From Podarcis vaucheri (lineage: Eukaryota), in assembly GCA_965113315.1 (NCBI GenBank), contig OZ220375.1: 64,000 nucleotides of DNA; one strand, given 5' to 3'. Positions 2,355 through 46,699 of the stretch are shown piece after piece. The first letter of the stretch is position 1; the number at the start of each line of letters is the position of its first letter. Made by a program: the position numbers and the translations under genes. Under the pieces are notes generated by a model that saw nothing but the letters and a program-made list of their open reading frames with translations, searched no databases and had not been told where the DNA came from.

Positions 2355-2861
2355 CCACGCCTCCATCTGCTTCTCTTTGTTCTCGGGTCAGCATGGCGGA
2401 AGCCAGTGCAGCATTCAGATTTCGTTTTTTATCGTTTAAGAGTTTTTATCGTTTTTAAGAGTAGGTTTAAGCACAGCTGAAGATGGAAGAGTGCGCTTAG
2501 GAAGAACCAGAAAAAACCACTTGAGAGGGGGAGGCTATATTCTCCAAGCGCAGAAGCACCAATTATTTTCCTGAAAGAAAATGGCGACCGCTTTCTCCCA
2601 GAAGGCGCTCTAGGGTGGAATTGCAAGTTAAATATCATAAATCACTCGCGGGTAGCAAACAAAGCGGTAGGGTTAAACCTAGGAACTTTTATAAAAGCGG
2701 TTTAGCGTTACTCTTAATAAAGGAAGCCAATCCTAGGTCGGCTGCAACACTCGACTCACTTTTACGAGAAATCCTTTTCATTTCCTGTGAAACGATAATG
2801 AAGTACCGTAACTCAGAATTATTTCCGCATAAAATGTATCAGTATCATAAATTAGGTGGTT

Positions 2862-2903
2862 CAGCACTTCTTAAGAAAAAAGTGGGTGGCCCTGAAAAGG
2901 GCC
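2862..2903 (-). terminator. Histone mRNA 3' stem-loop and histone downstream element (U7 site)
   Basis: Minus strand reads CCAAA-GGCCCTTTTCAGGGCC-ACCCA (stem-loop 2888-2903), then purine-rich AAGAAGTGCTG about 15 nt downstream. Confidence 0.95.
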
Positions 2904-2953
2904 TTTGGGTTTTTTGTTTTGTTTTAAGTAGTTTCAAGAACGAAGAAATCCCC

Positions 2954-3313
<360 letters not shown>

Positions 3314-3318
3314 TCAAC

Positions 3319-3486
3319 TTTTATAGTCTGATGTCGGACCAGAGTGGAAACCTGCACGAGAAATATATATATATAGGCTCCGCCTCCCACTTTTCCCCGC
3401 GTGTTGGAAACGCCCATGAATTCTCAGTAACCAATCAGCAGAACCATGAAAGCTGTCCAATCAGACCTCGTGGAGAAGTATCCAAT
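3319..3486 (-). promoter_or_regulatory. Histone H4 promoter (TATA, H4 site II/HiNF-P-type element, GC box, 3 CCAAT boxes)
   Basis: Minus strand GGTTTCCACTCTGGTCCGA (3334-3352) then TATAAAA (3319-3325); CCAATCA on + strand at 3431, 3457, 3482. Confidence 0.8.
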
Positions 3487-4946
3487 CAGAGCTCGAGCCC
3501 GGGGAAAGACTTATTCGAGCTTGGTTATTGCGGGCTTAGATTCCAAAAGCGTCGCTCAGCTCAATGAATGGGGCGAATGCAGCCTCCAGTGTGCTTCTTA
3601 ACAGCTCAATTGCACGGCATGTGCTCAGTGGGGTTTACAGTCAGGTAAGGATTGCAACCTAGAGATAGAGGAGCCTGCCTTCTCGTCTTCGGCCTGGAAA
3701 CTCCAAGAAACTACGTGGCTTAATTCTCCCACGCGTCTGACATACATACCTGCTAACGCGGCAACGAAGCGATCCTGAAGCAGCAGCTTTCCATTCGAAA
3801 TGAGTCTCTTACAGGAGTTCTAGCTTGGCCCGCGGCCGCAGCGTGCATTGCCCTGGCCTTGAAATTTGTGTCTGGGCCCCTTCATGGGGAATTTTGTGGA
3901 TGCTAGGACACACAGGGATCCGGCACCTATGGTCTACTGCGTGTTTCTAAAACTAGCGATTCGTTTTGCTTAAGGGGAGGAGTGAATAAAGTGGGGTTTT
4001 AAAAATAACCTTATCTCACAAAAGAAGCGACTGGGGAAAACACATACGGGAGAGTGTTAGCGGACGGTGGCTGGCTCACAGCAGTGCCTCTCCCATTTTA
4101 CGTGAAGATTAATTGAATGTTAAACTCCCCGCGCTGTGATCATTCGGAGGAGAAGCCGAGAGATCCTGATGGCCAATCACATCAGGACGCGGGATTTTAT
4201 TTTTTAAGGACCCGTTTCTTTGGCATGATTCATTTTGTCTGTGCCCTTCCTTCCAGGCGGACTAGTATAGCCGCCCTCCCTCAACAAAGGGGAGCCGTTC
4301 TCCAGTCGCCATTTTAGCCTGCGTTTCATCAGCTGTTCCCAATCCTATTCGCTCACACCAGACTCCCTTATTCGGTTTGGCGTGTCGTTGCACAATCCTG
4401 ATTGCTGAAGATGGTTTAATATATTACTGGATGCAAATTTGTTACCCTCTACATACATGCAAGTTATTTTTCTCACCCGTAGGGCTTTCACCGCTTTTTT
4501 TTTGGTCAGCCTAGTTTGCTATTCCAGATATTTTGGACCACAACTCCTGGCATTGCCTACCACTGGCCATGCTGGCTGCTTGGGACAGAACATTCTAGAG
4601 CAGCCTTCCTCCATCTGGTAGTGGCTAAGACGCTTCGGTACAAGAACTTGTGTTTGGAATAATTTTCAGAGAAGTATCTGTATTAGTCAGCTGCAGCAAA
4701 ATGAGTTTTGTGGAATTTTAAAGACTAGTACAGTGATACCTCGGGTTACATACGCTTCAGGTTACACACTCTGCTAACCCAGAAATAGTGCTTCAGGTTA
4801 AGACCTTTGCTTCAGGATAAGAACAGAAATCGTGCTCTGGTGGAGGCCCCATTAGCTAAAGTGCAGCAAGAGGCCCCATTAGCTAAAGTGGTACTTCAGG
4901 TTAAGAACAGACCTCCGGAACGAATTAAGTACTTAAGCCGAGGTAC

Positions 4947-17551: not shown

Positions 17552-18300
17552 AACTTCTTATAGGTGCCGACATTTTACGGGGGCGGTGGGGGGCCATTTC
17601 TTCGGAGGAAGGGGACAGAGCCTCTTCCCCCGCCACCAACCTCCCATAGCAGCAAGCAGCCAGGCTGGTGGTGGGGTGTTGACCTCTTGCGATAGCCTGT
17701 CCTCTCCACCCTCAAATCCAACCCCTATGGAAGTTCACAGGACACCCCACCCCCCACTCCGCCCCCATCTTTTCTGTGGGCAAGGAGGGAGGAGTAACAA
17801 CGGTCTCATCTTCGCCATCTTTACTGTGGGCACGCGATGAGGGACTGGAGGCTCGGTGAAGCGACATTTTTTGTGTGGGCAGCCGGCTCAAAGGTGTGAT
17901 ATTTACTGATATTCACAGCACCGTTCTGCACAATCTCAGGGCCATACTAACAAGAGTCTTGTATTTTTAGTGTAGGAAATAGGTTTATTATTATTGGTTA
18001 GAAGGGAGGGGGAGCGCGAAAACGATGGAAAGCACCCATCTTTCTTACTGGCAAAGGGAAGTGCAGCGAGGCCGCCATGTTTGCGCCGGGCAGTAAGCGA
18101 AGAGCTGAACGAAGGGACATGTCTTTGTTGTTACTACGGCAACTTCCCCGCACCATCCAATGGAGCCGCCATATTTGATGTGGGCAAAGAAGATTAAAGG
18201 TCATTTTTGACACTCAGGGAGGCGCCAAATTTTCGTTTTGAAATGCATAAACTAAAACAAAACCAAAACAGGTTTATCGTTCGCGTGGCCAGAGAAGCAC
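17552..18300 (-). promoter_or_regulatory. FIZ1: FIZ1 CpG-island promoter and candidate non-coding exon 1
   Basis: CpG-rich; minus-strand donor GTGAGT at 17551-17546; five co-oriented YY1-like motifs (17566, 17812, 17860, 18071, 18164). Confidence 0.6.
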
Positions 18301-20195: not shown

Positions 20196-21095
20196 TAATT
20201 TGCATGCAGAAGGTCCCATTTCAGTCCTCATGCAGGGATGAAAATGTCCATGTGAAACCTTGCATAGCTGCTGTTAATCAGTGTGGACAATGCATGGTAG
20301 TCTGACTCAGCATAAAACAGTTTCCTAAATCCTTAGGTGTTCTCTAAACTCTATTGGACCTAAGCTATTTAGCATCTTGAATTGTGGCTGGAGGCCTTTT
20401 GCAGAATTTGGAAACTGGTGCATTTTTTTTCTGGTAACTTCCTCCTGTTAGTTCAACAGTCTTCAAGGTCAAGCCAACATGTCATTTGTAGTCACATCAC
20501 AAAAAAATGAATGATGGCTGTTAGATCTGTACATGATCTTTGTGAGATAACCAGCCTTATACAACCAAGTCTAATTAATACACAAAAGGCTTGAGATCAT
20601 AAAGCAAGCTGTCCTTAACCTTGGGAGGGACTGGGTGATCAATCATATGGTTCAACCTCCAGTCTACCTGATGAACTCAGCATGTGAGGTCTGAGTTGGT
20701 TGCTGTAGCTCAGACTCTATGGCTCTTACAAGCTACTCTTGAGTTCCTATACCAATAATTTAGGATTTTCACCATTGTAAGTAAGTCAGGTTTTACTGAC
20801 TGTGCAACTTTTTCTGAATGCTGTATGGAAAAGTACATTAATCTGACCTTTGGAGAGTTTGTAAGTAAACCATTTTTTAAAACTTGTCAAACATATGGTC
20901 TTTTTCTACACTAGGAAAAGAGTGCAACTTTGGGGGAAAAACATCTTGAGGAGACATTTTGGAACTCACTTTAAATTAAGGGCATATTTTAAAGGTTTAA
21001 CAACCTCTATTTCCACATTTTACTTTGCTGCATGTTTTGTGATTTCAAACCTCTTGATCATGGCATCCAGGAATTCTCCTTTTTATATAACTATA

Positions 21096-21531
21096 CAGTG
21101 GTGCCTCGCAAGACGAAATTAATTCGTTCCGCAAGTTTTTTCTTCTTGCGAGTTTTTCGTCTTGCGAAGCACGGTTTCCCATAGGAATGCATTGAAAATC
21201 AATCAATGCGTTCCTATGGAGACCGTCCGGGGACAGAGGGGAAGCGCCGCGCGCCTTCCCCTCTGTCCCCGGACCTGTTTTAAAGCAAGGGAAGGGGCAG
21301 TGGGGAGAATCGCTTCTCCCCGTTGCTGCCCCTTGGTTCAAAAGGGGTCCGGGGACAGCGGGGAAGATGCGCTGCGCTTCCCCGCTATCCCCGGAGCTTG
21401 TGGGGCAAGCTTCATTTTGTGAAGCAAGCCCATAGGGAAATGCGTCTTGTGAAGCGGCTAAGAAAACGAAAAACTCCTTCGTCTAGCGAGTTTTTCGCCT
21501 TCCGAGGCGTTCGTCTTGTGGGGCACCACTG
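21096..21531. mobile_element. Tc1/mariner MITE (gcaagacg family)
   Basis: Same TIRs as 4987-5326, TA TSD. Confidence 0.85.
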
Positions 21532-22166
21532 TATTTCCTTACCACCAACAATCATTTCATCAGGAGAAACAAATAGTTTTGTGACTGAATCCAGGAGTAA
21601 TCAGAGACTGAATGTCCTTTGAAGCTGAACTCTCATCATTTTGTTCTCTAACTACATTCTCAAAACCAGAGGCAATTGGCACTTTTGCTACACAAAACAA
21701 CATGTATTTACTCCAGGTTAATTGAGCAAGGATAGCTAATACCCTTTGATTCTATACTGCTGCTCAGTAGCATTAAAAAAACCTGTTTCTCCCAGGTGAC
21801 ATCCTCCCCTTTAAGCATTCCTTAATGTACTCCTACTCAGCATTTTATTGTGTGATCTGCCTGAAAACTTTTTTATTTTTTAACTGCTGTTGGTTTTACA
21901 GTGGAACCTTGGGTTATGGCAGGGATCTGTTCTGGAGGCCTCACTGCAACCTGAAAATGACGCACATTGAAGCGCCGCATCTGCATATGTACGGTGCGAT
22001 TTAGAGCTTCTGTGCAAGCTGCAAACCCGGAAGTAACCTGTTCTGGTACTTCCAGGCTTGCCGCAGACATTCACCAAAGTGGACGCAAGCGGAGGCAGAC
22101 GCAGAACAAGGTTTGACTGTATTATTTTTACTTTTTAAGGTTGAATTTTCATTGTATTTTGTATTA

Positions 22167-23128: not shown

Positions 23129-26100
23129 TCATTCTAGGCCAATCCACTTCTTCACCACGCTTAGGATATCTCCAGCTAAAAGCAGCACCTCCTTCTCCTT
23201 GCATCTAAGGAAAGCCTCATTGGGAATGGTGGGTGAATTGTGGTAGCTGGGATACTGCGTTCTCTTGTCATCCACGCCATGCTGCCGGAGTTCCTCAATC
23301 TGATCAGGCAGCTTTTCCAACTCCTGTCCATAAGAAGCTACCTTACTAGCCAGCATTGGAAGAGTCAGATTCCTGTCAAAGCGACCTCCCTGGTAGTATT
23401 CAACTGCTGTCAGGGCTTTCTCCACTGTCCGGTAAGTCTTGTAAAGCAGCCATTCAGTGCTACCCTGACCAGCACTACTGGCTGCCGCCTTCAGATCACA
23501 CTTGGCTTGCCTTAGCCAGCGCCTGGCCTCCTCCAAGCAGTGAAGTTTTGATTGATCCTTTGAATACTTTGGCCCTCTCTGATGGAAGGACCAGAAGTTG
23601 TAGTTGCAGTGGCCTCCTCCTCCACCCCCACCCCACCCTCCTCCACCCCCACCCCATCTTTGCCTGGTGAATTCTGTACGCCTCTCTTGATGATGATGAG
23701 CTTGCTGGTCCCATTCACCCCAAAATTCAGAGCTCCTCTTGTAGGAACCTCTACTTTTGGGTCCCCCTCTGGAGCCACTGGGTGTTCTATTGTTCTCCAT
23801 CTCCTGGATCTTGTCTTTAAGGTATTTGAAAATTTCATTGGCAGAATCCTCTTGACCTATGTTTTTATCTGGGTGGTAGCACAGATAGAGTCTTCTTAAA
23901 GCCTTCCTCCTCTCATCCTCTGACAAGCTCCAGATTTCAGCCAAGCAGGCATCCACTTCTTTCTTTATCTCACTCAGTGGCCTCTCGTACCAATTGCCGC
24001 TTGTAAGTGGTCTTGCAGTACTGCTAGCACCAGGGGAGCCTTCTGCCAAGACCACAGCTTTACTCAGATCAGATGCAGAGTTATTCCTCCGGAAATGGTA
24101 AAGGTCATAGGCACTGACCTCTGCATGCTGCCCTCCTCCCAAGTCAACAAGGTATGTGTGTACTTGGCCAGTACCGCTCTGCCGTGGCCCAAGGGCTTCA
24201 AGGACCACAGCGTAGAGGTAATGCTCTCTGGGCTTGGAAGAATCCAGGTAACCCACGTAATCTTCTGGCAGAAAGGTGTGGAGGATGCTCATGTCCAGGC
24301 TGTCATACCATTCCTCAGGGATGTCCTCTCCAGGAGGAGGCAGGATATAGGCATTTAGGTTTGCTGGCAGCTGCAAGGGCACTTTGTTTTTCTCTAGCAC
24401 CTCAGCAATTTCCTTAGGCCTTTGGCAAACCAAAATCTGCCCAAGGACCATCAGGGCATCCAGGTTAAATCTTTGTCCTAAAAGCCTATTCAGTTCTGTG
24501 GCTAAATTGCCAGAGAACTCCACAGCCCACTGTGCACCTTTGCTCTCCTGGTGTGCAAGGTAAAGCTGCAGTTTGCCATCTGGCATTGTTGCAGCATACA
24601 CTGTCTTGGCACACTGGGTTCCTTCCATGCTCTGCGAATTGTGCACCATGGTTGTGCACACTTTTTCACAACAAACCACTTCTAGCCGCTCCGGTGAGAA
24701 GTGTCCTTCAAACATGCATTCCACTTCCTCTACTTTTGTCCCACCCTGCCATTTAAGCAGTGCAACCAGAGCATGCTGGAACTCGCAAGACATGAGTAGT
24801 TCTTGTAGCCAGTTTTGGAACTCACAGTGTTCCCCATAGGTACAGAGTTTCAGAGAGGACTCTTCCAGCTGCTCTTCAGTGATATCTGACAAGTTCTTGG
24901 GGCGCAAGGCTTCAGGCAGCTGATGCAGAAGCCTCTGCTGCTTATACTTGTCGTAAGGTAGCTGACATATTGAGAGATCTATCAGAAAGCGAAATTTGCA
25001 CTGCAAGCCCTGGGGTTCCTGGCCAGACTTGTAAAAACTAAAGATGAGGCTGTTTGATGGATATAGCTTCCCATCAACACAAGGCAGATGCAGTTCTTTC
25101 AGCTCTGAGAAATCCATTTGATCCTTTGCTTCATCTAAGAGCTGGAAGAGCAACTGAGTGGCCCTGAGCACTGTTTTGGTGAGGTTGGCATGCAGTTTAG
25201 CCTGCCTTACAGTCTCTGCATGAATTCTGGCCAGAACACTGGCATAGTGATGGATGCTTGCCTCATCTTCCACTCCCAATTTCTCCAGGACATCCATATA
25301 GACAGCTAGCTTTGGTGGTAGCTTGTAAAGATACGGCCGGAAGTCCTTTGGGTATTTTAATGAGACCACCACATTCTGGGCCTCTGCTACCTCACTGTCA
25401 TCCACTAGTATCACAGGGAATCCCTTTAAGCAGGCAGTCTCTAACATTTGCTGTTGCGACAAATAGCCATAAGCTGACTTTAGGACATCCTCTCGAGTTT
25501 TCCTAGCTTTTGGAGTGTCACATGGTGCCTGGCATACGTTTCTTAGATTCTCCAAGACTAAATGGGCTGGCAAGGTGCGCAGCACTCCCAGTTGTTTTAG
25601 GATGGTTTCTTTATTTTCCCCAACATATTCAACAGAAGGCAGAATGACCGCTGAAGTCCACACCAGGTCTGCTTTCACAGTTAACAAGGAACCTTGGGGT
25701 GCCACAGGAGTATTACACGGCACGTATGGCAAGTGAAGGCAACACAGATCTTCAGAGATCTTCTTTGGCAATAGGAAACGGATCTTGGACACTGTTTCCA
25801 GGAAGGCCTCTGAGAAGTTTTCACTGGAAAGCAAGTAGCTCCAGAGTGCTCTCCTCCTTTTATCAAGATCATGGGCACCGTCCTTCTGTTCTCCAGCCCT
25901 CAATGCTTCTTTTGCAATTTGGGTAGCCAACACTATAAAGCATTCCTCGGAGATCTCTTGCTGCAAGCCCACATCAAGTAAGAACTCTTTCAACTCCCAT
26001 ATATTCTCTGGCCACACTGAGTCATAGAATTTGCGTGGCACAAACAGAGAATCCATTCTCAACTCCTTGAAACACATTTTCTCCTCATAAAAATAGGACA

Positions 26101-29100
26101 CAGGACGCATCACACCTTGCTTGTCCCGGATGAAGGCGAAAGACTGGAATGTTGTCACCACTGTCTTTTTCTCGGCCTGATATTCCTTAGGATAATGCCT
26201 CTTGATAAGGAGGAGTAATCTCACAGCCTCCAGTACACGAGCTTCGGGAAGATGGGACAGCCGAGGCAAAAGCTGCTGTACAAACTGCTGCAAATCGTTC
26301 ATTACACCAATGCTCAAGCTCTTACTGAGATGTCGGTTCAGCAAGCTATCGCTCAGCAGGACAGTCTTCTCATCTACCTCATAAAGCTCCTGGAAGTTCT
26401 TGGTTTCCTTTGGAATCTTGGACTCCAAGATGTAGATATTCCTGTATGAAGCCAACGAAACGTGCTTCCCTTGGTGTGTTTTAAACACAGGCAAGGATTT
26501 CAACTTGCTTAGCAATCGATGGTCATTCTTCAGCGTCTCCAGTTGGCTGCTTAGGAACCGCAACAGCGCTTGAAACTCCCACCCTTTGAGCGCATCCCAA
26601 CACAGGTCATGATGAGCTGCCAGTTGTTCCAGCACTACTGTAGGATTCTCGATCTGCAACACACATGGCAGAATGCAATGTGCAGCGAGCTTTGGAGGCA
26701 AAAGAGAGGAGTCCAACTTGGAAAAGCCCAGTTTGTGGAGAATTTCAGTAACAGGGCCTTCTTGACCAGGCATTATCGTGTTGAGGGACTCAAGAGGAAC
26801 CAAGAACTTAGTGCAGCCACAACACACAGGGAGCATGGCACAACCTTTGAAGAGGGAAACTAGCTCTGCAAACATCTTTTTCATCGTGTCTGAATTCGCA
26901 GTCATGCAGATCTGGTTCTCAAAGAAAGCCCACAATTCACTGAGCCATTTCTGGCCTTTATCAGTACTGACCCTGTTGTCCAAAGACAGCATCTCCTTGA
27001 TGAAGGCCACAGAATCATCGAGTGTAAAATCCTTTAGGAACCCCATATTTACTAATAGCTGCTTGGCCTTTCCATCAATTCGGCAGCGAAAGAAACAGTC
27101 CTGATGGTGTGGGAAAAGATGGTGCACACTGCTATGGTATGGAGGACACTGCTGAGTGAAGCACCTCAGCATGTTATCTTGGGTCACCAGCAAAGGGAGA
27201 CCTTCCAAGCAGCTTTTGTCATCAGGAAGAAGCTTACTGAGGCAGAACTCGAGGAGAGCAGAACAGTCGCAGCTATTCTTCACAGGTGTCAGATGAAGTG
27301 GGCAGGGCAGGAGAAAGTTGGGCAGGTTCTTGAGGAAGCAGCAGAGGGAAGGAGAATCGAGGGTTAGGATATCAACTCCTGCCTTGACAAAATGGTCGCG
27401 TACCAATTGCAAATGTTGGAAGGCAGGGACAAAATTCATGCCCAGACTCTGAAGAGTAAGCTCAAGAACCTCACTTATCTCAGATGGCAGGAAATAGGGA
27501 TCACTGGTTGGGTGGCCCAGTCTGGGTGCACTCCAGTGCACACTCACTTCTTCCATCTTAAATCCATACTTGAAATTAATCTCCTTCTGGTACACAGGGA
27601 CCAAGGGAAGTTGCTCCATGTATGCCAGTTCATACACACGGGTCACCAGCTGTTGCCATGCTGGGGGGACATCCCTTGTCACAAATGGGAAATACTGCAA
27701 ATAGTTTGATTCCAGCCACTTCTCACATGCAGTCAGGGAGTGGAACTGCAGTGGTGTATCATTCAGCGCCTGGCGCAGCTCATAAAGCAAGTGGCAGTAC
27801 AATGGGGCAATGAGACACTGCAGCAGCGAGTTATTCCAGGACATATTGGCACCACCTTCACCATCATCCTTCCGCAAGCCACGGCGAGCAGAGTCCACAG
27901 CAAAGTTCCCATTGATGTGGATGGGAAGTCCTGTTTCTTCCAGAAGCGGCAGTGTGCAGAAGGCCCTACCAGGTGGCCGTCCATCAAAACAAGCTGCCAC
28001 ACCCCCACACGCCAAGTCCATGTTTTGCACGGTATTGTCACTCTCAAGCCCAATCTGCCTACCTACCAGCCAGTTGCTGGAAACGTTGGAGATACTACTC
28101 TTCACCTTCATTCTGTAGAAGACTCTCATTGGCTCGCCATCATCCATTCCACCTGCTGCAGCAGCCTGTTGGAGACGCTTCTGGTATTCCAGTCTTTCAG
28201 GCTCACCACCTTCAGCCTCTACCCGCAGCACCTCCTTCGGTGTCCCTCCCCTCTCACTTATTATAGAGAAGACCACGCAGCGAACGTGGTTGAGGAACAT
28301 CACAAGGCTGTCGGCTTCTTCAATGAGAGCCACCACAATTTTCTTCATGTCTTGCTCGGACACAGAGCTCTGGCAGATACGGGATGAGGCTGCACCATCA
28401 GGAGTACGTAAGGGTAACCGGAAAACTGTGCCTTGTTCCAAGTTAAACACATCAGGTAAAAAGGTATTATAAACATCACGGATGGTGTCTTTGACTTCTT
28501 TAGCAAGGTTGTACATTCCACCAGGTGAGATCTCATCAGAATCAGGGAGGTAGTGCAACATGGGGTCAAAGACGCACAGAGCACTGTCCCCCGTCACAAA
28601 GGCAGGGCAGTCAGTCAAGTGATAAACTGTACTGAAACCTAGTCCATATTTGCCGGTAGCATCTCTCCTCTCACCTTTGCCACCAGAACCCAAGCGCTGG
28701 ATCCCTTCTATGTCACACCTTTGGAAGGTGCGGTCATTGTAGATGCAAAGTGCCGGGCCTTGAAGTTCATTCCACTCCTTGCTGAAGACGCGATCAGTCG
28801 GGTGCTGTCGCCGATCCCAGACAAAGTGGACAAGATTTGCACCCGCATCGTCTGCATTCTGCAGCAGCTCCTTTAGCACATCCTGTGAAGAGGAGTACTC
28901 ACGGAGGATGTTGGCCAGCCGGGTACAGATTTCTTCCTTGGCTCCAAAATCTGTGGCCCAGGAAGAGAGACCCTGAATCCGCTGGCGTGACAAGACACGT
29001 CCTTTTGTGGTCTGAATGCCACAGCGCATAGCAATTTCCCGCGGGATCATGGCATGACAGAGCAGGGTCCCTTTCTCATGCGGAAGCCATGGTGTGTCAT

Positions 29101-32100
29101 CAAAGAGGAGTTTGGGCAATGGACGAAGGACTTTGTGTTTGTCTGGGAAAAATACACTCTGGGCTTCATAAGGACTCAACTGTTGACCCTCTGGCAGGGC
29201 TTCGGCCAGCCCTACAGTGATCAACCTGACAACTAGGTCCAGATGCCCTTTGGAAAGAGACTGTCCAGCTCCCTCCTTGGCCAAAGTCTGCAACACAGTG
29301 GCATAGTCCTTCACTTTGAAAGTCGCAGGCAACCCAACACACTCCCACAGCATCTTTTGCTTCTGGTACTCCTGAGGCAGCTGGAAGAGGTATGGAGCAG
29401 CATCAAAGAACAGGCAATGGGCCACACTGCACACTGACACAAAGCCAGTGTCCATGAAAACAAAGGGGAATGTCCTTGCCCTTTGGGACACCTCCACCTT
29501 GGACAGAGGGTTCATCTGCACTATTTCATTCAGGAACGCATAGCAGATTTGTGCTATGTTTCCCAGCTCCGTTCTGGACAGGGCATTGGAACTACGTGAT
29601 GCTTCCTCCAGTTGTGTCAGCACTGTAGATACTGGCGGCTGGCGATTCAGTCCTAGGAATTCCTTTAGCTCCATGGAGAGCTTCAAGCCTTTACCAAGGG
29701 CTGTCTTGTCCAGGACAGGCTCAGTCAAGCCTACCAGGGGGTGCTGCTTATGGCAGTAAACCTCTTTGGGGCAGCAGAGTTTGCGTTGGTTAGCAGGTAG
29801 TACTGCTGGCAAGAAGGGAATGTCTCTGAAAGTAACCTGGGTAGTGTTGCTGTAGCTTTCCTGCAGGTGGTCCTCAAGGAGCTCTAGGATGCAGCGGGCA
29901 CGCTGGCAGGCCTTGACTGGGTCATGACTCCACAAGGCTGCCACAGTTCTGGCTCGGGCTATCAGTTCCTCCATTTCTACACAATCTTTGGCCATGCCAA
30001 GATGCTCCAAGCGCAACAGCCTCTCTGGTTCCAGAAACCCTGTGCCCGTGGGGAAACGGCCATCTTCAGGAGCGTAGAGAGGTGCAGCGCAGCCCCTTGG
30101 GTGTACAAGTTCTTTAATGTTTCTCAGCAAACTATTGGGGACAGTTGGAATGCAAGGCCAGGATGTCAGGATCTTATTCACGCCAGCATCATTCATATCC
30201 AGAGCACGAAGAATGAGGACATCGCGATCAGGCACTGCCAGCTGAGCAAGATTGGGCAAAACAAGCTCACAGAGGAATCGTGCCCAATTGTAGGTGTTTG
30301 GCAACAGGACGTCCCCCTGGATGCAATCTCTGAAGTTCATCTTCACCCAATCTGGAACTGACACCGCCATCTTTGGCTCTGGCAAAAGTAAAGAGAAGAC
30401 CCTCAAAGCTATAGGTTCCAGATGCTCCTGACAGGTAATGTCAGAATTGAGGATACAGGCATCCCGGGCTGGGCACCATCGCTGTCCATCAGAAAAGAGA
30501 ACTGGCTGTTCCCCATCAACACCATTGACTAAGGCTTGGTAGAAGGCCTTGACTGTTTCACTGAATGGGTGCTTGGCACTGCGCACGTCAGGCCAGAAAG
30601 CATGGTACTCATAGTCCTCCAGCAATCCTTCCTCGTACATGTCCCGGAGCAGGGACAGTGCTCCAAGCCAGGCACCCAGCACGGAATCCCGTAAGAGTGC
30701 CTTGTTCCATTTCCCCTTCTCAGTAGCTTCCCAGAGTCCTTTGCGATTACTCTGCACAGCAAAGACTGCCGTGAGATGCAACGGGAGTCCAGTTTCAATA
30801 GGAAGAGGTAGAAAGCAGAAGGCACGGCCCTTAAAACCATCTACACCTGGAACCCATTTTCCAGCAGCAGTGGCGGGGCGGAGGGCCAAAGCAACGCTAG
30901 CAACAGGAGGCGAGAAATGGACATCCTTTTCTTTTTCCTGTTTGAAGACCTGAAGGGCTTCTCCTTGAGCAGAGCAGGAGTGCAGCAGGTAATGGCTGGT
31001 GACCACACTCGACTTCCATGTTGCTGTCAACTGCACAATAGTGGACGTACCCATCCTGACAAGTGCTTTCCTGCTCACTGTGGCTAATGGCTGGGTGGTT
31101 TCTGGGGAACTGGAACCATGAGGAAGGTGGGTCAGTGACACCTCCTGCACTTTTCTCAGGAAGATCAGCAGGTACTTGTACATCTCCCGGAAACCAATTT
31201 GCAAGGATTTGATTCGACTGGGTCCAAACGGATCACAGCAGATCTGAGAGTCCTCTGCCTCCTCCTCAGTGCGGAAGGGCAGGCGGAGGAGCGTGCCTTG
31301 GTAATCATCTCCAGGTTGACAGCCAAAGATTCCTCTGAACGGTCGAAATTGTTCAGGAAATCCAGCAGCGACTTTTCGGTTCAATGTGAGACGCATGCCT
31401 GGTTGGCCTGAATTACGGATATGCTTCCGAAGGTGGGTGATGTTTGGGTCAAAGATGAGCATGGTGTGGCCACTGAGAAGAGAGGGCACATCAGTGATGT
31501 GGTAGACAGTGCAGAAGCCCAGCCCAAAGCGACCAATCTTGTCATCCTGCCGTTCCTTGGTAGCTGCACCTAGACGGATGATGTTGGAGAAATCTGTCTC
31601 GGTGAAGAACGCATCATTCTGGGCCCAAAGTGCGGGGCCCTGGCAGGCAGCCATGCCCGGGTCCAGGAGTCCTTCAGTGGTACCGTTATGCTCACGGAGA
31701 TCGACTAGGAAGCGGCAAGTTTGGGCGCCAGCATCCTCAGCATTTTGCAGCAGTTCCAGGAACACATCTGCATCCTGGCTGTATTCACGAAGGATGTTAC
31801 GGATCCGGAGGGTGATTGGCTCCGAAGGACCCCACGCCTGAGCCTCCAACACTTCCAAGCCTGAAAACCGTGTGCTTAGCATTTCCACACCATGGAAGGT
31901 AGCAGTGGCAGAGGAAACAGATTCATGCACCAAAGTAGGTGGGTCGCCATCCAGCTCAGCAAGGTGCGCCCGATCCATATCACAGTACAGCACAGAACTG
32001 GCCGGGCGTAGAACAAAACCGGACAGTCCTTGAATCCGCACAGGCACTGGCATTTCCCTTTCTCCATGGTAGCCACGAGCGCACAGCCAGTCTAGGACAG

Positions 32101-33930
32101 CTATCACGAGGAGCAGTTCAGCATGCATGCCGCCTTGTGGTCGGGCATTGATTTGATCTGCCAACTTCTGCATTGCTTGGCACACTTCCTCCTCTTGTGG
32201 TAACTTATGGACCCCCCATGCTGCAAACAGCTGGCTGTAACCTTGGAAGTCCAGAGGCACTCGTGGCATCAGGGCTGTAAGGTCTAAGCCATCAGGGTAG
32301 GCCAGCACCACATCTGCAGCCAAGGAGAAGCCAGTCCCATTCCACACCACAGGTCCCACAGGTGGCTTCTGGAAGTCCCGCAGGTGCTGTTGCATGTGCC
32401 GATAGATGCTGTGCAGCTTTGTAGTTAACACAAAAGCCTCCTCAGGGTGACATCCCTGTGCCAAGGCAGCTAGATTCTCCATCACGTTCTCTGGTGGAGG
32501 AGAGTTCTCCAGACCCAGTTCTTTTGCAGCTTCTGGCCGAAAAGCATTAGTCAGTCCCATGACCAGCCCGACAAGAGCAGCGTACTTCTCCGAGCGAAGC
32601 AATTCAGGTGCCAAGAAATCTCCAGCTGCCGCCAATGTGGAAGTGTTGGTGGCAGGCACCCAAGGCAGGGACCGCAGCCGCTTCAGCTCCTTTAAGGAGA
32701 AGTGTGAGAGTAGAGGAGTCTCATTGCAGACCCGGATGAGTGCCTGTGATTTGGCACTGGCATCTGCAGCCTCTTGCAGTTGACCAACTTCCTCTGCAGC
32801 CATCAATGCATCTGCTGGACAGACAGCACTGAGATCAGATTTCAGGCCCAGAACACGAAGGGTTCGCAGTGCTGCTGGCTCCCGGAAGGGCCCTGTGGGG
32901 AAGCGGCAAGGTCTCAATAAATCCTGCAAAGTGCGATTCTCTGGATCATAGAGGTCACTGGGCCTGCCCAACCTTCCTGATCCGCAATCCAGGAATGGCA
33001 GCTCACGACACAAAGTTTGCAGCTCTCGGCTCTGGCTGAAGAGGGAGTCCCCATTGTGCAGCACCCACAGCATGAGCCGCTTGGCTTCCTGTGCCCAACT
33101 GGCATATGCCCCCTTCGTCATCGCCTTGATGCACAGCAGGCACAGATCCGGTGTCCCCAGCAGCTTCTGCCCGATTAGCAAGAGCAGGTGGCGTTCAGCT
33201 TCATTCTGACACAACAGCACAGGCTCTGGAGTTAGCAGATCCGAGGGCACTGGTGGAACCAGGTTCTTCTCTAAAGCCAGGTGGTGCTGGGCTGGCACCA
33301 AGCCAGACCTGGTGGGTGGAAGGAGGGAGGGCATCTTGAAGAAGAGTGGCAACTCAGTTAGGACTTCGGCTTCTTTGGGGGAAAGCGACGCAGCCGTGGA
33401 GAAAAAAGCACTCAGGCTCTTGATCTGGCAGGTGGGCAGAGATGCAACGCGACCAGCCACAGATGCCACCCCTAAATGGGCAAAGACCTGCAAGACACTC
33501 CCAGGCGTGGGTTCTAGGATGTACTCTCTCAGCTGGTGGTGGCACCATTCTGGCTGCCAGCTCCGGACCATAGTGCATCCCAGTCTCTCCAGAATGCCAG
33601 CCACTTCGTCCGGCAGACAACGCCCCTCATGGCTCTGGAACAGCAGAGTAGGCTGAGGCAGCAGCCGTGCCAATTGGATTCCACTGTGGGAGTTCTGTAG
33701 AGGAGTCAGTGGTATCAGGGGGCATCCCTTGAAGGGTGCCAGGGAGGGAGCATGGCGACTCAGGAAACTCCAGAAAGCAGAAAGCCACTCAAGCGGGGGC
33801 TGTTTTGGGTACTCCTTTGGGCACCAAGCTACAGGAGCAGGGTTGCTGCTGACCCAGTCCTTAGGGAGAGATCCACGAAGGTTCTGCTCAATGACATTTT
33901 GATCCATGGAAACAAAGTTCCTGAATAACC
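23129..33930 (-). CDS. Sacsin-like protein, giant last coding exon (10,802 bp): SRR2, SRR3, J domain, HEPN
   Basis: Open frame with [46 protein letters not shown] and EARRWLRQAKCDL; acceptor (ct)n-catattcag at 33931, phase 1 matches the upstream exon. Confidence 0.95.
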
Positions 33931-34926
33931 CTGAATATGAGAGAGAGAGAGAGGGAGAGAGAGAGAAATCAGCAACCACCATTTGTGTGCACTTGCATTT
34001 CCTGTTGGGAGCAAAGTGGCTATGTATACACGACTTCTATGCCCAGCACTGAAAACTACTTTGGATGCAACCGAACTCCAATATGTATAGGTCTGTGAAT
34101 GATTTGGTATCGCAATGATGCTAGAGCACTGCTGAAGCAAAGTGAGCCTGAAACTGATCAGCGTACCAAAAACCAGCGTGGTATAGTGATTACAGCAGGC
34201 AGATGCAAACTGTGGCCCATCAGATATTGCTAAACTACAACTCCCATCATCCCAGGCCATTGGCCATGATTAAGGGAACTGGTGAAAGTTGTAGTTTGTC
34301 AACATCGAGAGGGCCAAATGTTGCCTGCCCCTGGATTAGAAAATAAGACTAAGGCAAAGGAGGACAACCTTCAGCCCTTGCTCTAATTTCATGCAGGTGG
34401 TGGAGGACGACCCAACAGAGAATGATGGAAGGGTGGTGGAATCCACTGCAAGCGATCAGATCAGACCTTTGACAAGAGTGATCCATCTCTACTGGTGGCT
34501 GGGGGGAAATGTTCCCCAACCCTGTGCTTAAGGGTTCAAATGCCCAAACTAGCTGTTAAGTTAGTTTACTTGGAGACAGCCACTCTACTGCTATTTGGTG
34601 TCACGCTCACTATCTTTCCACCTAATCTATTTTACAGTGTTGCTGGGAGGAGAAAATGGCGCCTGTGTGTAAAAAGCATGTGTTTGTACATGGTAGAACA
34701 TTTACACTGGTGGCAGCCAGCCTGGTGCCCTGTGGATGCTGTGGATTACCATCCCCATAATCTCTGACCGTTGGGCCATGCTGGCTGAGGCTGAAGGAAG
34801 TTGAAGTCAAGCATGGCCAGTGAAAATAGGAGTTGCAGTCTAACAGCATCTTAAGAACATCAGGGTGGGGAACCCATAAAACACCAGAAGCTGATCATGG
34901 TGCACCCAGGAAACTGAAAGTCTCAC

Positions 34927-35015
34927 CCTTTTCTGCAATTGTTTGCAGATGCTTCAGCAGCTCAGGGTTTAGATCCTTGGGCAAGAACTGGTGAGCCAGG
35001 CCAGGCAACAGGATC
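34927..35015 (-). CDS. Sacsin-like coding exon 6 (89 bp)
   Basis: ttttgcag|...|gtgag; encodes (R)ILLPGLAHQFLPKDLNPELLKHLQTIAEK(G); phases 2->1 fit neighbours. Confidence 0.85.
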
Positions 35016-35510
35016 CTGCAAAATCGGCAGAAAGAAACCACAGGTCAGTTAGGAAGGACAAAGGCAGGGTGACAAAGAAAAGGGATGTACTATGGAACAA
35101 GCACCCAGTTAATGCCACTGGTTTATTTATGGGGCTAACCATTTTAGGGAATCAAAGAAATGCAGCATGGGCCTCTTTATCCTGTAGGGCAGTATTTCTC
35201 AGAGTGAAAACTGGGTCTCAAAGAAGTGCAGGCTGGCGCTAGGGGAGACACTGAGCCAAACTATGCATATGAAAACAGTGCATAAAGGCCTCTGTCTCTT
35301 GGTTTGGTGCAATGTCTGAAATGAGCCATAGTGAAGACATTTGTGAACTGCCTTGCAAGGTGTGTATGTGTGCGTGTGCACATGTGTGCATTAACCATTA
35401 TGCAAGTCCATTAATTGGAACATCTAATAGGGAGAGGACATTTAACTGTGGTAGGGCGAAAAGGACAATGTCGGTTTACCCTGGGGATCATATGTGGTAA
35501 GACTGCTCAC

Positions 35511-36945
35511 CTGGGGAAGTTGTGGTTCTCGAGGAAGACTGTCTCTCCAGAATCTCCAAAGCAGGTAAAGTTTCCATTGGCTGTCGGCAGCAGCGGCAGA
35601 TTCTTCAGCTCCTGGTAACACCCATCTCCAACCAAGTACTCCAACAGCAACTGTTTCTCTGTCAAGGATATCCCATGCCACACACTGGTAGTCCGTCGCA
35701 GGGTCTCCCTGACAAACTTTGGTGTGGCCTCTTGCACCACTGCCCTGCCTTTGGCACCCCACACCAAAGCTCGGCGCACATGGAGAGGAGGAGCAGCAAG
35801 TGGTGATCCTGTCAAAATGAGGGCCTTCTCCAGGGCCTTCTCTACTGGTTTACCACTCACTACCTCTGGCAAGATCACGGCTTTGCAGGGGTGGAGCAAA
35901 CGAGGTTCCCCATCCCCGACTCGTACCAAGAGTTTCATGTCCATCAGTGTCTGGCATATCTGAACCACTAAAGGCTTGTATCGGAGTTGTTGGCTTTGGT
36001 CTGGGTCTGGCCACGCCCCATATGGGTTGTCCGGACAGGTAGATGCCAGCAGTACCATTTGGCAATAAGCAACAGGCAACATCTCCTCCATAAGCAAGTG
36101 GTTCCAACGACCATCGGCTCCCCTCGCTTGGGACCCCTCTTCAGACCACTGCACGTGTCTTCTGTCATCTGTCAGCTGGAAAGGGGCACTGATGTGCAGT
36201 GGCAATCCAGTGGTGTTTTCCTCTGTGGCCGGGAGCGGCAGGACGCAGCTGAGGCGTCCCATGCACTTGTCTTGCAAACAGTAAGCCAAGGACAACACAG
36301 GCTTAGAGCTGACCTTCACTGCGAGTTCCCACAGTTCTGGGAAGGCATCCTTTTTCGCTTCAGCAGACAACACAAGCCAGTTGCACTTGCTGGCCTGTCC
36401 AGTCCCAGTGCCACATAGAGTAAGTGTTTTGATGTGGACACCCATGTCCAGTTTAGTGCCCATAGCATCATCAACAAGGTTTGCCTTTCCACTACTGCAT
36501 TCTGCAACTTCCAGCACACCTTGGCTCATGCCCAACCCATTAAATGGGCAAGTGGTGGCCTCGGCCTTCAGCAGCTCACGGATGGCACCATCGGACTCAA
36601 TGAGACCCAACGTCAGTTTCTTGATGTTCCTGAGGAACAGCAAACTAATGGGGGCATCATTCACGAACGAGAGCAGCAGTTTCTGCACCCGTTCTGGAGT
36701 GTAGAGATTTTCTGAGATCTTCGATGGACTCTGTCGTAGCGGGAAGCGAAACAGGGTGCCTGGAAAGCGGCCCTCCGCAGTTGGGCAAGGCTGGCCCAGA
36801 GACCTCAGTGCTGCCCAGAATGGTTGGAACTGGTCGGATGCCTCTTCCCATTCACTCACCTCCCAGAGCTGACCCCCGTCATGTAATGCCATCTGCTGTG
36901 GGTCCAGCACCCCCAAACATTCATCAGAAAGTATAGATGGGAAAT
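35511..36945 (-). CDS. Sacsin-like coding exon 5 (1435 bp), rest of SRR1
   Basis: ctgtttag|...|gtgagc; (D)FPSILSDECLGVLDP...FPGTLFRFPLR...TGLPLHISAPFQLTDDRR. Confidence 0.92.
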
Positions 36946-37362
36946 CTAAACAGAGTGAAGGGAAGGAATTCAGCCATTAAAATGTGGGTGCCCCAGTCTT
37001 GGTTCCTTTCCCCCCTTCATGCTCCTATTTCAATTCATCCTTATCTCTCTCAATTTCCCCCATCTCAATGATGGCATTAGGCATATTTCACTGGGGAGAG
37101 CATTCTACAAATGGGGAGCCACTGTTGAGAAAGCCCATTCTCCCATTCCCTCCCCCTCAGAAGAAGTACACAGACAAAGGTCTCTGAGGATGATTGAGGG
37201 GCCAGGTATGCCGATGTGGGGAGAGAGAGGTGGTCCCTGAGGTCTTGGGGTCCTGAGCTGTCTTCTAGGCCTTTTTCCCTATAATTCTTATGCCTTCCTC
37301 CCAAAGACATCTTGTTTTGAAGATTGACTATCTCCCAAATTGAGCCAGGCAGAACTTCTCAC

Positions 37363-37509
37363 CTGTGATATGGTAAACTGAATTGAAGCCCAAGCCAAAG
37401 CGTCCAACTGTAGAAGGGTCATCCTCCTTGTGACTGATGCCTGGACTCTGGATCCCTTCCCAGTCAGCCTCAGAGAATAGACCATTGTTATAGGCAAGAA
37501 GCGCAGGGC
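37363..37509 (-). CDS. Sacsin-like coding exon 4 (147 bp)
   Basis: tttttcag|...|gtgaga; (G)[48 protein letters not shown]; the ORF track shows a different frame here. Confidence 0.92.
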
Positions 37510-38459
37510 CTGAAAAAGAGAAATGTGGTCATGCAATTTTTACTCAAGTGCCTTGATGATGGTTTGATTCACAGTGTCACTCCCAAGCCAAATTTGACAT
37601 GACACAATGTCTGAATTGCAAACTAGGGTTTGTGATCGGCCAGCAAACCAAAACAGAAATCATGATTGAATGTTTTGTGGCACGAGATCCTGTCTAATGT
37701 AGCAAACCGTGGTAACAGCCACCTCCAGAGGCTGTGGCACCAGAGAAATGGGAGCAGGCTAATAAACCTGATTGCTATCAGAAGCAGACCAGGTCCTATA
37801 AACAAGGGCTAGAGAGCCCTGCCACCATCCCTGACCATTGGCTATAATCACTGGGACTGATGGGAGTTGGAGTTGACCTATAATTGGAGAGCCACAGCCC
37901 CCCCATCTCTTTTCTAGACTAAGATTTCTGCAAACCATGATGTGATACTGGAATAGAGCCAATATATTGAACATACTGGAGGCGAACTCTCAGGTACCCA
38001 CATCATTTGTTTAAAGCACATTTATACGACTTTAACAGTCATTGTGAGAGCATATAAGGCCAGTGTTTTCCATCTATCCCAAAATGGATATTGTAGCACA
38101 GAAATGAGAATGTGGGAAACTACTGTACAGTGGCCAGCCATATTTCCCTCCCACAAGGCACCTGGAAGGACACTACATCATGGCAACTTTCCTTGGATGC
38201 ATTGTGGGACGAAACGGCCCCAAAGTAGAGGAAGTTCACTGCTGCCTTCCCAGGCACAAAGAATCATTCTGGTCAATATAAGAAGAACTTAGAGAAGCCT
38301 TGGCTACTGACTGCTAAGAAGGAAGCCTTTGACCCTTGAAAGCATCCCTGAAAAATTATTATGAATTTCATCCAGCCAACTTCCTCCCTATAGGAGACAT
38401 TGTGATTTCTCTGCTGGGCCCCCCAGAGCACCCACCACTGGGAGGTGTCTAATCCATAC

Positions 38460-38571
38460 CTTGGGTGCTTGCCAGCCCCTCTGAGAAAAGGCTCTGGGTT
38501 CCAAAACTCCGTGCATCATAGAGCAAGATCACCTCTTCAGCCCCCGCATCATCTGCATTTTGGATCAGCTC
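38460..38571 (-). CDS. Sacsin-like coding exon 3 (112 bp)
   Basis: cttcctgaag|...|gtatgg; [37 protein letters not shown] (GHKL N-box). Confidence 0.92.
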
Positions 38572-39114
38572 CTTCAGGAAGAAGAGGAGAATGAGAGTAG
38601 GAACAAAGGCCAGGGGTCAACACAAACAGACTGTGGAAATTGCTACATGGATGCCAGTCCCACATTCCATAAACTGCTAGACATATACAGGGGTCGTCAA
38701 TATCACCCCTTTCAAACTTTACCTATTTAGAAAAGTGAGGACAAGCCATCTCCTTGCTGCTGTCTCTCTCCCGCATCTGTAAAGGCTGGGAGACTTGGCA
38801 GGCTTCTTTACTGCAAATCTGCACCTTCTTTAATACTGCACTAGAACTGGCCATTCTGACGGTTTTGGCATCCTTCTTTGGTACCCCTGCACCCAGCCAC
38901 TCCCACAAGCCGTCCTTTGGGCCTGCGCTTCAGAACAGCTTCCTGCTCTAAACTTGAAGTCTTCTCTTCCCAAAAAATTCGGGTGTTTGGCTGCCTCCAC
39001 TCTGGGAACACGCAAGTTGTTCAAGCCCTACTTAAAATGCAATCCATGTGAAATGCCTTTGCTCTCAAAAACGGCAAATGCAAACAGCCCAGGCCCAATG
39101 CTTTAAAAACTTAC

Positions 39115-39202
39115 TTTTAAGATCTGACCCCCATCTGGGTACTTGCGGAGGATACCCTGCAAGTATTTGAGGACAGGAGGTGATTTTTGTCGAAAGCCCT
39201 TC
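39115..39202 (-). CDS. Sacsin-like coding exon 2 (88 bp)
   Basis: ctttctttcag|...|gtaagt; KGFRQKSPPVLKYLQGILRKYPDGGQILK resembles the start of sacsin SRR1. Confidence 0.9.
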
Positions 39203-41357: not shown

Positions 41358-41437
41358 TCAGCACATCCAGCACAGTCTCACTAGCATTTTTTTGTCCATG
41401 AGAAATCCCATGGATACACACACACTGCATTTCTCAC

Positions 41438-41460
41438 CTCTTCTTCTGCCCCTGAGACAT
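41438..41460 (-). CDS. Sacsin-like coding exon 1 (exon 41468-41438; ATG at 41460; MSQGQKK)
   Basis: cttttgcag|GTATCAAC ATG TCT CAG GGG CAG AAG AAG AG|gtgaga; phase 2 joins exon 39202 in frame. Confidence 0.7.
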
Positions 41461-41802
41461 GTTGATACCTGCAAAAGTGAGGAGAAAAATGCAGAATGAG
41501 GAAAAAATTGAGTCTATAATCTCACCAATACAATTTGCACATTGGTCCCCACTGAACAAAAAGAGCTCATAAACTATTGTTCCTTCTGTAAATGGACATT
41601 TTTTAACAAAACAGACAAGAGGAATCACTTACCATGATGTTACAAACACACACCCCCACTCATCTCTCATCAAAGGGATTTTGGAACAATAGAAAACCCT
41701 GCCAGGCTGCAGTTTCAGATAGGTAGCCGTGTTGGTCTGCCATAGTCAAAATAAAAAAAATCCTTCCAGTAGCACCTTAAAGACCAACTAAGTTAGTTCT
41801 TG

Positions 41803-44959: not shown

Positions 44960-45591
44960 AACTAGACGGCAGGAGGTTCCCCAGAATGCAAAACAGTGGT
45001 AATTTCACGCAGTACCATTTAGAATACAGCCATATTTGTATTTCTACTGCATAGTCACACTATAAACCAAGTCTACACAAGGAGAATGAGGTCTAAGAGC
45101 CCAGCACTGCACCATTTTAGTCGACAAGGCTAAACGTCAAGGCAAGTCGACGTTTTAACTTTCCCTCCCAAGTTTTATAAAAAGAAAAGGCAAGTTCCCT
45201 GCAAGTAGAAATTAGAGCGTTAGGAACACGGCCGAGCTATATATTTTTATCCCCCGCCTGAAGTATTAGCTTTTTGCTTCTGCGGGGAATTTGCTAGGTG
45301 AGGAAAACCTCAAAAGCGATGGCTCACAGACGCCAATCTCTCAGCCTAGCCTACTTCCCAGGGCTGCTGGGAGGATAAAATGCGAACGAGGCACCTTGCG
45401 CTCTTTGGAGGAAAGGTGGGCTAGAAGTGTCTGTATTAACTAAGCAAATATGTTTAGGATCAGAGCATTTCGCTGTGTTTCCAGAGACGCTCGTACTTCT
45501 TCTAAGCCTGTTTAAACCCCGTTACTCCTCCCAAGGAGCCCAGGAGTCCTGTTGAATCGGTCCCCATCACCTGCGGTCTGTTATTACTCAC

Positions 45592-45830
45592 CGCGTCTCT
45601 TGGAAGATGCAGGTGCGCAGCTTCCCGGCCGACGATGACTAAAGAGCAAAATAGGTCCGCCGCCCTACCTCGCCTCAAGGCGGAGGGCGAGGGAAGCAGC
45701 GGCTGCTGCGCTTTAAAGATGCCAGTCGCTTTCGATACCGGCGAAATGGAAACCGAAAGCGATTTCGCTCCGTTTGGGAAAGAGGCGGGGAATGTCTCGG
45801 AGCTGAGGAGTGGGGCGGGCACTTTTAGAG
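45592..45830 (-). promoter_or_regulatory. Sacsin-like gene CpG-island promoter / non-coding exon 1 with ISRE-like element
   Basis: CpG-rich; minus-strand donor GTGAGT at 45591-45586; GAAATGGAAACCGAAAGC at 45743-45760; GC box at ~45812. Confidence 0.65.
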
Positions 45831-46699
45831 GGGAATGTGGGGCAAAGACGGTGGGCATTCAGGAACCAAAGGCGGAGAGGTGGAAGAGTCGGTATCTGAT
45901 ACACTACAGAAGGGAGTGGCCAAGATCGAGCCCATCCAGAGACAGCTATAGTTGGCAGGATTCCTGTCTTGCAAGGGGGTTGGGATAGATGACCCTTTGG
46001 GGTCCCTTCCGACTTTTCGATTCTAGGATCCAGTTACGGCTGGCTCCAGAGAGACAGATATGGAAATGCCTCCCCTGCTGCCTCAGCGAAAGTGCATAGT
46101 AATTATAGCGGCAGCTCACAAGGAAGTCCCACTGAATTCAACAGAGCATACTGCCAGACAAGCTGGTGTTAGGATTGTAGCTCGAGTCTTTGGGTTACTT
46201 TGGCACATACGGTGCATTTAAATCATATGCCTTCTTCTACAAAGAATCCTGGGAACCATAGTTTGTAAGAGGTGCTGGAAATTGTAGCTCTGGAGGAGGA
46301 AAAATACAGTTCCCAGGATTAGGGGACGCAATAACTATTAAAAGTGGTGCAAAGCTGTCTGCAGTAGGGTGGACTTTGAGGTCCCTACCAACTCTTAATA
46401 CTGATTCTCACGTACCCCTGTTCTCTTCCAAAGAAGCACAACCAACCCATTGGGTTTGATACTCGCTATCATAGCAGATAATATGAGGCGTACTGATGCC
46501 TTTTCTGTTTGGATCTGTATTTCACTTGTTTATTTCTGTTGTGCCATTTGAGTTGGTCGATAGATGTTTGGATGCATGTCTGAAAATCAATGGAGATGAT
46601 TGGGTGTACATCTGAAAATCAGTAAAGATGATTTGAAAATAGTACAACCAAGCAGTCCACATTCCCTCTCCAAGAATCCTGGGAATTGTTGCCCCTTTT

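Follow-up and report, generated by a model that had tools for sequence, protein, structure and literature searches.

A candidate virus-responsive element at the 5′ end of a sacsin-like gene in the lizard Podarcis vaucheri

The closest described counterparts of the locus reported here are the tripartite interferon-stimulated response element (ISRE; the tripartite form, TISRE) at RSAD2 (viperin), the fish genes known as 'sacs-like', the Tiamat-like proteins of type XI-A, and human SACS. Type XI-A proteins, in the accessible text of a preprint (bioRxiv 10.64898/2026.09.30.754977), possess three ATPase modules, a J domain and a HEPN domain, lack a ubiquitin-like domain, and are described for aquatic chordates with their antiviral role left open; the accessible text of a second preprint ties sacsin-repeat proteins to plant antiviral immunity. 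Human SACS, the gene of the ataxia ARSACS, possesses sacsin repeats, a J domain with the HPD motif, a HEPN domain and an N-terminal ubiquitin-like domain. The fish reports (lumpfish XM_034562115; cod, sole, sea bass and trout) mostly read their gene as human SACS. The present locus lies in a window of 64,000 nucleotides of Podarcis vaucheri DNA (assembly GCA_965113315.1, contig OZ220375.1), in which an element of the form GAAATG-GAAACC-GAAAGC stands at the 5′ end of a sacsin-like gene. This is probably a functional element of the ISRE/IRF type that may switch on the second sacsin gene of the lizard in viral infection. The element itself is of a textbook kind; what is added is the orthology link to an induced fish gene, the tetrapod range, a paralogue-specific histidine and the identity with the viperin element. 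On cis-regulatory grounds, it makes a case for counting the gene of a little-studied tetrapod protein of 4,200 residues among those of the interferon system.

The element and its copy at RSAD2

The bases at 45743–45760 read GAAATGGAAACCGAAAGC, that is, three GAAA half-sites with a period of 6 bp, as the initial annotation had described. GAAANNGAAANNGAAA was found once in the window, both strands considered, making this the sole triple, and no copy appeared in 100 dinucleotide shuffles. The near edge of the element lies 151 bp from the predicted donor CG/GTGAGT (minus strand, 45592/45591), in agreement with the roughly 150 bp given earlier, and the neighbouring GC box was found in two copies. 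With the motif excluded, the flanks are CpG-island-like (GC 0.57, CpG observed/expected 0.76). The element is single-copy DNA located outside both repeats that bracket it within the island, and a transposon source of the motif was unsupported. Its surroundings include a 9-bp inverted repeat (45726–45734 and 45754–45762), and the cluster of five GAAA cores exceeds those of the other CpG-rich zones among the eight in the window, the runner-up having four. The looser pattern GAAANNGAAASYGAAAS had 588 matches in 1.61 Gb versus 224 for the reversed control; this rate corresponds to 0.023 chance matches in 64 kb and 1.1e-4 in 300 bp, before allowing for the post-hoc choice of motif.

Two overlapping copies of the GAAANNGAAA consensus, which the accessible text of PMC6954429 gives for ISREs and IRF elements (IRF-E), were found at 45743–45758. 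The extended ISGF3 consensus WBVGGAAANNGAAACT was not matched, as the element has GGAAACCGAAA but terminates in GC. Since the full extended form occurs in <1% of IRF9-dominant sites (PMC6954429, accessible text), this mismatch does not exclude ISGF3. TTCNNNGAA was absent from 45300–46600, where 2-bp and 4-bp spacer forms occur, and a kappaB consensus was absent from 45560–45860.

The exact 16-mer had five copies in the genome, one of them 136 bp before the RSAD2 ATG, the identity of RSAD2 being supported by PDB matches with E values of 2.5e-25 and 8.2e-42. The RSAD2 promoter (contig C17:97790251) reads GGGAAATGGAAACCGAAACT followed by TAAAAA, the 136 bp being counted from the motif start. The two elements are equal at 16/16 bases and differ at the end, GAAAGC here versus GAAACT at RSAD2. 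Both consist of three repeats with 2-bp spacers, lie in a CpG island, and are within about 150 bp of a coding or untranslated-region landmark; in contrast to that of RSAD2, the element of the sacsin-like gene is opposite to transcription, has its last core followed by GC and not CT, and is accompanied by two extra inverted cores.

Among 30 scored non-telomeric GAAANNGAAACCGAAA loci (27 from a search with 33 matches and three from a search with 145 matches, all but 45 of the latter being listed), three were in CpG islands, namely RSAD2, the island before ATM, and the sacsin-like gene. The ATM element is a triple GAAACC in the upstream CpG island (C18:24231164). Five of 15 hand-picked loci with related patterns were also in islands, two of these being upstream of major histocompatibility complex (MHC) class I exons, one lying 4 kb away from an ApoL exon, on its 3′ side, and two having no assigned gene. 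At the MHC class I loci, a triple GAAA precedes the exons by 0.8 and 2.6 kb (C10, 127.39 and 127.26 Mb, respectively), and an ABC-transporter (TAP-like) exon is present beside the 127.39 Mb site. The motif together with a CpG island is informative; the motif alone is not. Ten IRF-domain loci were found in the genome.

In the lizard SACS locus, no triple was observed in 100 kb and no double GAAA in its CpG island. A gene on C18 that we take to be Mx-like had doubles and no triples. A triple on C29 near a Dynamin_M gene was considered as an Mx-promoter control and rejected, as it lies within that gene, which we take to be of the DNM1L type. The initial annotation had noticed no comparable motif at the promoters of FIZ1 and ZNF524; this held for triples, and one double, GAAACAGAAAG (53046), is located where the CpG island preceding the ZNF524-like gene has its upstream limit. 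In the likely FIZ1 island (17751–18250), no double GAAA was present.

The sacsin-like gene, its family and induction in fish

The protein predicted for the gene possesses three sacsin-repeat GHL ATPase modules (three Pfam SACS matches across two exons), a J domain, for which the Pfam DnaJ match was weak and below the cut-off although the HPD motif is present, and a HEPN domain (PDB 3o10, E 7e-21). No PF00240 match for a ubiquitin-like domain was found in it. It shared 96% identity with the Zootoca vivipara 'sacsin-like' protein over the region searched, which marks the host as a lacertid. The N-box of the first ATPase was located at residues 28–68 in 23 paralogue proteins versus 108–130 in 16 of the 17 SACS proteins. 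A second sacsin locus of the same genome is on C18. In a quick IQ-TREE search based on one 561-aa region, with 49 rows hand-chosen from about 380 proteins and support given by the Shimodaira–Hasegawa-like approximate likelihood ratio test (SH-aLRT; no bootstrap), jawed-vertebrate sacsins fell into two clades, the window gene and lumpfish XP_034418006 in one of 26 rows (SH-aLRT 99), and human SACS and the C18 gene in a separate one of 18 rows (SH-aLRT 100). The former is long-branched and includes shark, lungfish, teleost, amphibian, turtle and bird proteins; the SACS clade is slow. Lacking a ubiquitin-like domain and lying outside the clade of human SACS, the window gene is, as judged from its sequence, a sacsin paralogue and not the SACS orthologue. 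With the fish 'sacs-like' genes it shares the clade, the domain order and the lack of a ubiquitin-like domain, and with type XI-A proteins the module composition; what differs from the latter is the occurrence in squamates, turtles, birds and amphibians, together with an ISRE.

The HEPN domains of the two clades differ in the sequence TRYPxxL (SACS, 110/111) versus TQYPxxH (paralogue, 95/103 and 98/106). That of the window gene reads R-x6-H (RTQYPSYH); the His was present in all 23 sampled paralogues, with the Arg position mostly occupied by K, T or A. R-x4-6-H is described as the catalytic motif of HEPN RNases, and some animal sacsin HEPN domains were reported in 2013 to retain the RNase motif, which the human one lacks (accessible text of PMC3710099).

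The paralogue ranges from sharks to birds, including squamates, turtles and amphibians. No mammal was named among the best 120 hits, though these extend to teleosts, out of 2,185 scored candidates of bounded length; crocodilians, galliform birds and ducks were also missing among the best 120. This suggests loss of the paralogue in mammals, and no more than suggests it because of these other missing groups, the number of candidates and the length bounds. The orthologues of birds fall short by about 250 residues; in the two inspected, the HPDK motif of the J domain was missing. One sturgeon model of the paralogue has five ATPase N-boxes instead of three, through either duplication or gene-model fusion; cichlids have several tandem sacsin-like copies; and one source also labels a tilapia sacsin-like record as ferret, probably in error.

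Induction has been reported in lumpfish, in which poly(I:C) raised 'sacs-like' and lowered 'sacs' (accessible text of PMC11357929). On XP_034418006, the peptides encoded by the sacs-like primers fall at residues 44 and 74, a spacing that yields the 111-bp product as published; both peptides are found in SACS proteins as well, though in other repeats. The peptide of the 'sacs' forward primer, PDWYCL, was found in 93 of 115 proteins of the SACS search and in none of 263 others. Primer mapping and the tree thus indicate that, in lumpfish, poly(I:C) induces the orthologue of the window gene and represses canonical SACS. For the cod primers, no assignment to a paralogue was reached, and a review and two studies (accessible texts of PMC8875540, PMC3534563 and PMC11258392) list 'sacsin' among virus-induced fish genes with the paralogues not told apart. 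In reptiles, a nidovirus induces RSAD2 in python organoids, with sacsin unmentioned in the accessible text (PMC13562644), and the crocodile supplementary data had no sacsin entry. Our search, largely confined to open-access journals, found no literature pairing 'sacsin' with an ISRE, nor a tetrapod report on sacsin together with interferon, viruses, interferon-stimulated genes, birds or gene loss.

Two genes merged as 'sacsin' in the fish literature are now separated. The paralogue, inducible in fish, fast-evolving, carrying an ISRE in the lizard and keeping the HEPN His, is a direct candidate for work on the antiviral role of Tiamat homologues. As a tentative and rather doubtful extension, jawed vertebrates might possess a second, interferon-regulated sacsin that is an antiviral effector related to Tiamat, a bacterial anti-phage protein, with a possibly RNA-cutting HEPN domain, kept in fish, amphibians, reptiles and birds, lost in mammals, and identical with the virus-induced 'sacsin' of fish, which would then not be the ataxia gene.

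Transcription start, triggering factors and chance

Bound at the tandem GAAA half-sites, either directly by IRF3/7 or IRF1 after virus sensing or by ISGF3 after interferon, the element would increase expression from a nearby start on its downstream side, where TTTAAA is present; if the upstream exon listed in Table 1 is used, it would act from intron 1. Canonical SACS, which is without the element, would keep a housekeeping chaperone role.

The start itself is predicted near 45685 from the island and the core-promoter-like motifs. The element had been placed at the transcription start region, near a predicted exon-1 donor; that donor is supported because the model of Podarcis lilfordi joins it exactly to the exon with the ATG, the start and the first-exon status being putative. 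The exon at 45592–45638 has a usable acceptor, TTTAG at 45640–45639, and is therefore either first or internal. Somewhat unlikely, yet to be taken seriously, is a main start upstream of about 46495, with the element about 105 bp inside intron 1, still a possible enhancer there and compatible with the virus-responsive role proposed above. The acceptor is a good one, and the P. lilfordi model keeps a single frame across the junctions of 46412 with 45638 and of 45592 with 41468, the window being the same save for a 4-residue indel and two substitutions. However, the upstream extension occurs in one of seven lacertid models that reach the N-terminus, its ATG is ACG in the window, and the CpG island, GC boxes and TTTAAA are centred at 45.6–45.8 kb rather than 46.5 kb. 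Four raw-read runs of a relative (about 11–13 million reads each) had zero depth over the two stretches covered, 45550–45897 and 41374–41547, from which neither start nor silence follows. An unspliced contig of presumed RNA (45451–45651) was rejected as unusable for mapping the start.

The second alternative concerns the trigger. The element may be an IRF site for which interferon is not the signal, served by IRF3/IRF7 directly after sensing or by IRF1/IRF2 for basal or interferon-gamma-driven expression; we regard this as distinctly unlikely. According to the accessible text of PMC6954429, mouse chromatin immunoprecipitation data show IRF3-dominant regions to be enriched in the tripartite form, GGAAAC and GGAAANNGAAA; IRF1/2/8 were the factors for which tripartite sites were originally reported, and GAAANNGAAACT is characteristic of IRF9-dominant regions and of the ISGF3 consensus. 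The present element ends in GAAAGC. The fish poly(I:C) and virus data are compatible with either route. The same source, however, finds no ISRE variant restricted to a single IRF, and ISRE scores there fail to tell IRF3 sites from those of IRF9; mouse preferences may not carry over to lizards. The earlier proposal that the gene is interferon-inducible was supported indirectly, on grounds independent of the motif as such, by the viperin 16-mer, the fish orthologue and the SACS gene without the element; 'virus/IRF-inducible' is the safer term because of the missing GAAACT tail, the tripartite form and GGAAAC.

Several points weigh against a functional virus-responsive element. Genome-wide, the pattern shows no enrichment (33 matches versus 62 for the reversed control, or 145 versus 114 with telomere-like arrays included), 27 of the 30 scored loci are outside islands, three of the five exact 16-mer copies lack both an island and an assigned gene, and a triple is inside the DNM1L-type gene, so that the motif alone does not predict an interferon-stimulated gene. 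The ATM island is a further case, as ATM is not known as a typical gene of this class. A Pfam scan of 251 open reading frames around the three geneless copies gave one reverse transcriptase and nothing else above the cut-off; as the same scan missed 4/4 RSAD2 and 3/3 ATM exons, it is uninformative. Among the changes listed for three close relatives, none falls in the element, and an untouched 18-mer has a chance of 0.50 at that divergence. Around the element, 45737 is T in all three relatives, completing a full AANNGAAA, and 45766 is altered in one; metagenome scans for distant promoters yielded no relative, or 77 loci of distant, non-vertebrate-looking homologues. One predicted Podarcis model would put the motif in intron 1. 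The tree is a quick search on one region with composition bias in its sauropsid rows. Evidence of induction of the paralogue comes from fish, and regulation may differ across the fish–lizard split. A reading of the triple as accidental or as a decayed site of no regulatory effect, to which most genome copies being off-promoter, a pattern no commoner than its reversal and the chance level of conservation in close relatives would point, is nevertheless improbable, since it would need an event of ~1e-4 at the 5′ end of a gene with an independently induced fish orthologue, sharing the 16 bases of viperin.

Feature coordinates and further observations

Table 1. Features at the sacsin-like locus, in window coordinates
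Feature	Position	Strand	Remarks
Tripartite ISRE/IRF element GAAATG-GAAACC-GAAAGC	45743–45760	+	TTTC on transcribed strand
Five GAAA cores in 40 bp	45726–45766		triple plus two minus-strand cores (45730–45733, 45763–45766)
TATA-like TTTAAA	45712–45717	-	26 bp downstream of element; from sequence only
GC box GGGCGG	45813–45818	+	second copy at 45660–45665
CpG island, 5′ end of sacsin-like gene	45251–46000		GC 0.54–0.56, CpG observed/expected 0.80–0.84
Possible upstream 5′ exon, donor AC/GTGAGA	about 46412–46495	-	P. lilfordi model only; ATG there is ACG here
Non-coding 5′ exon, donor CG/GTGAGT	45592–45638	-	in-frame match to P. lilfordi model CAI5790883
31-nt exon with start codon (41460–41458; MSQGQKK)	41438–41468	-	matches lacertid RefSeq N-termini
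Remaining coding exons	23129–39202	-	about 39202–39115, 38571–38460, 37509–37363, 36945–35511, 35015–34927, 33930–23129; tblastn of Zootoca protein
Double ISRE-like site GGAAACTGAAAGT	34909–34921	+	start of last intron, beside last splice donor of sacsin-like gene

The double site in the last intron is possibly due to chance, the window holding nine doubles. The neighbours of the sacsin-like gene are C2H2 genes, presumably FIZ1 and ZNF524, which we take to be adjacent in human. The CpG-rich zone at 21090–21540, which encloses the double GAAAACGAAA, has inverted ends and the look of a small DNA transposon rather than a promoter. Another CpG-rich zone, at 2500–4250, carries an antisense frame that we take to resemble a core histone gene.

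Elsewhere in the genome, interstitial telomere-like arrays in which CCCTAA drifts to CCGAAA were observed at 106–108 Mb of C19, with similar ones on C26, C28, C31 and C33; such drifted arrays form perfect ISRE-like runs and dominate the genome counts. At 125.24–125.30 Mb of C10, there are six tandem units with GGGAAACTGAAACTGAAACT, which in the three units read lies 1.4–2.2 kb 3′ of a C2H2 zinc-finger exon.
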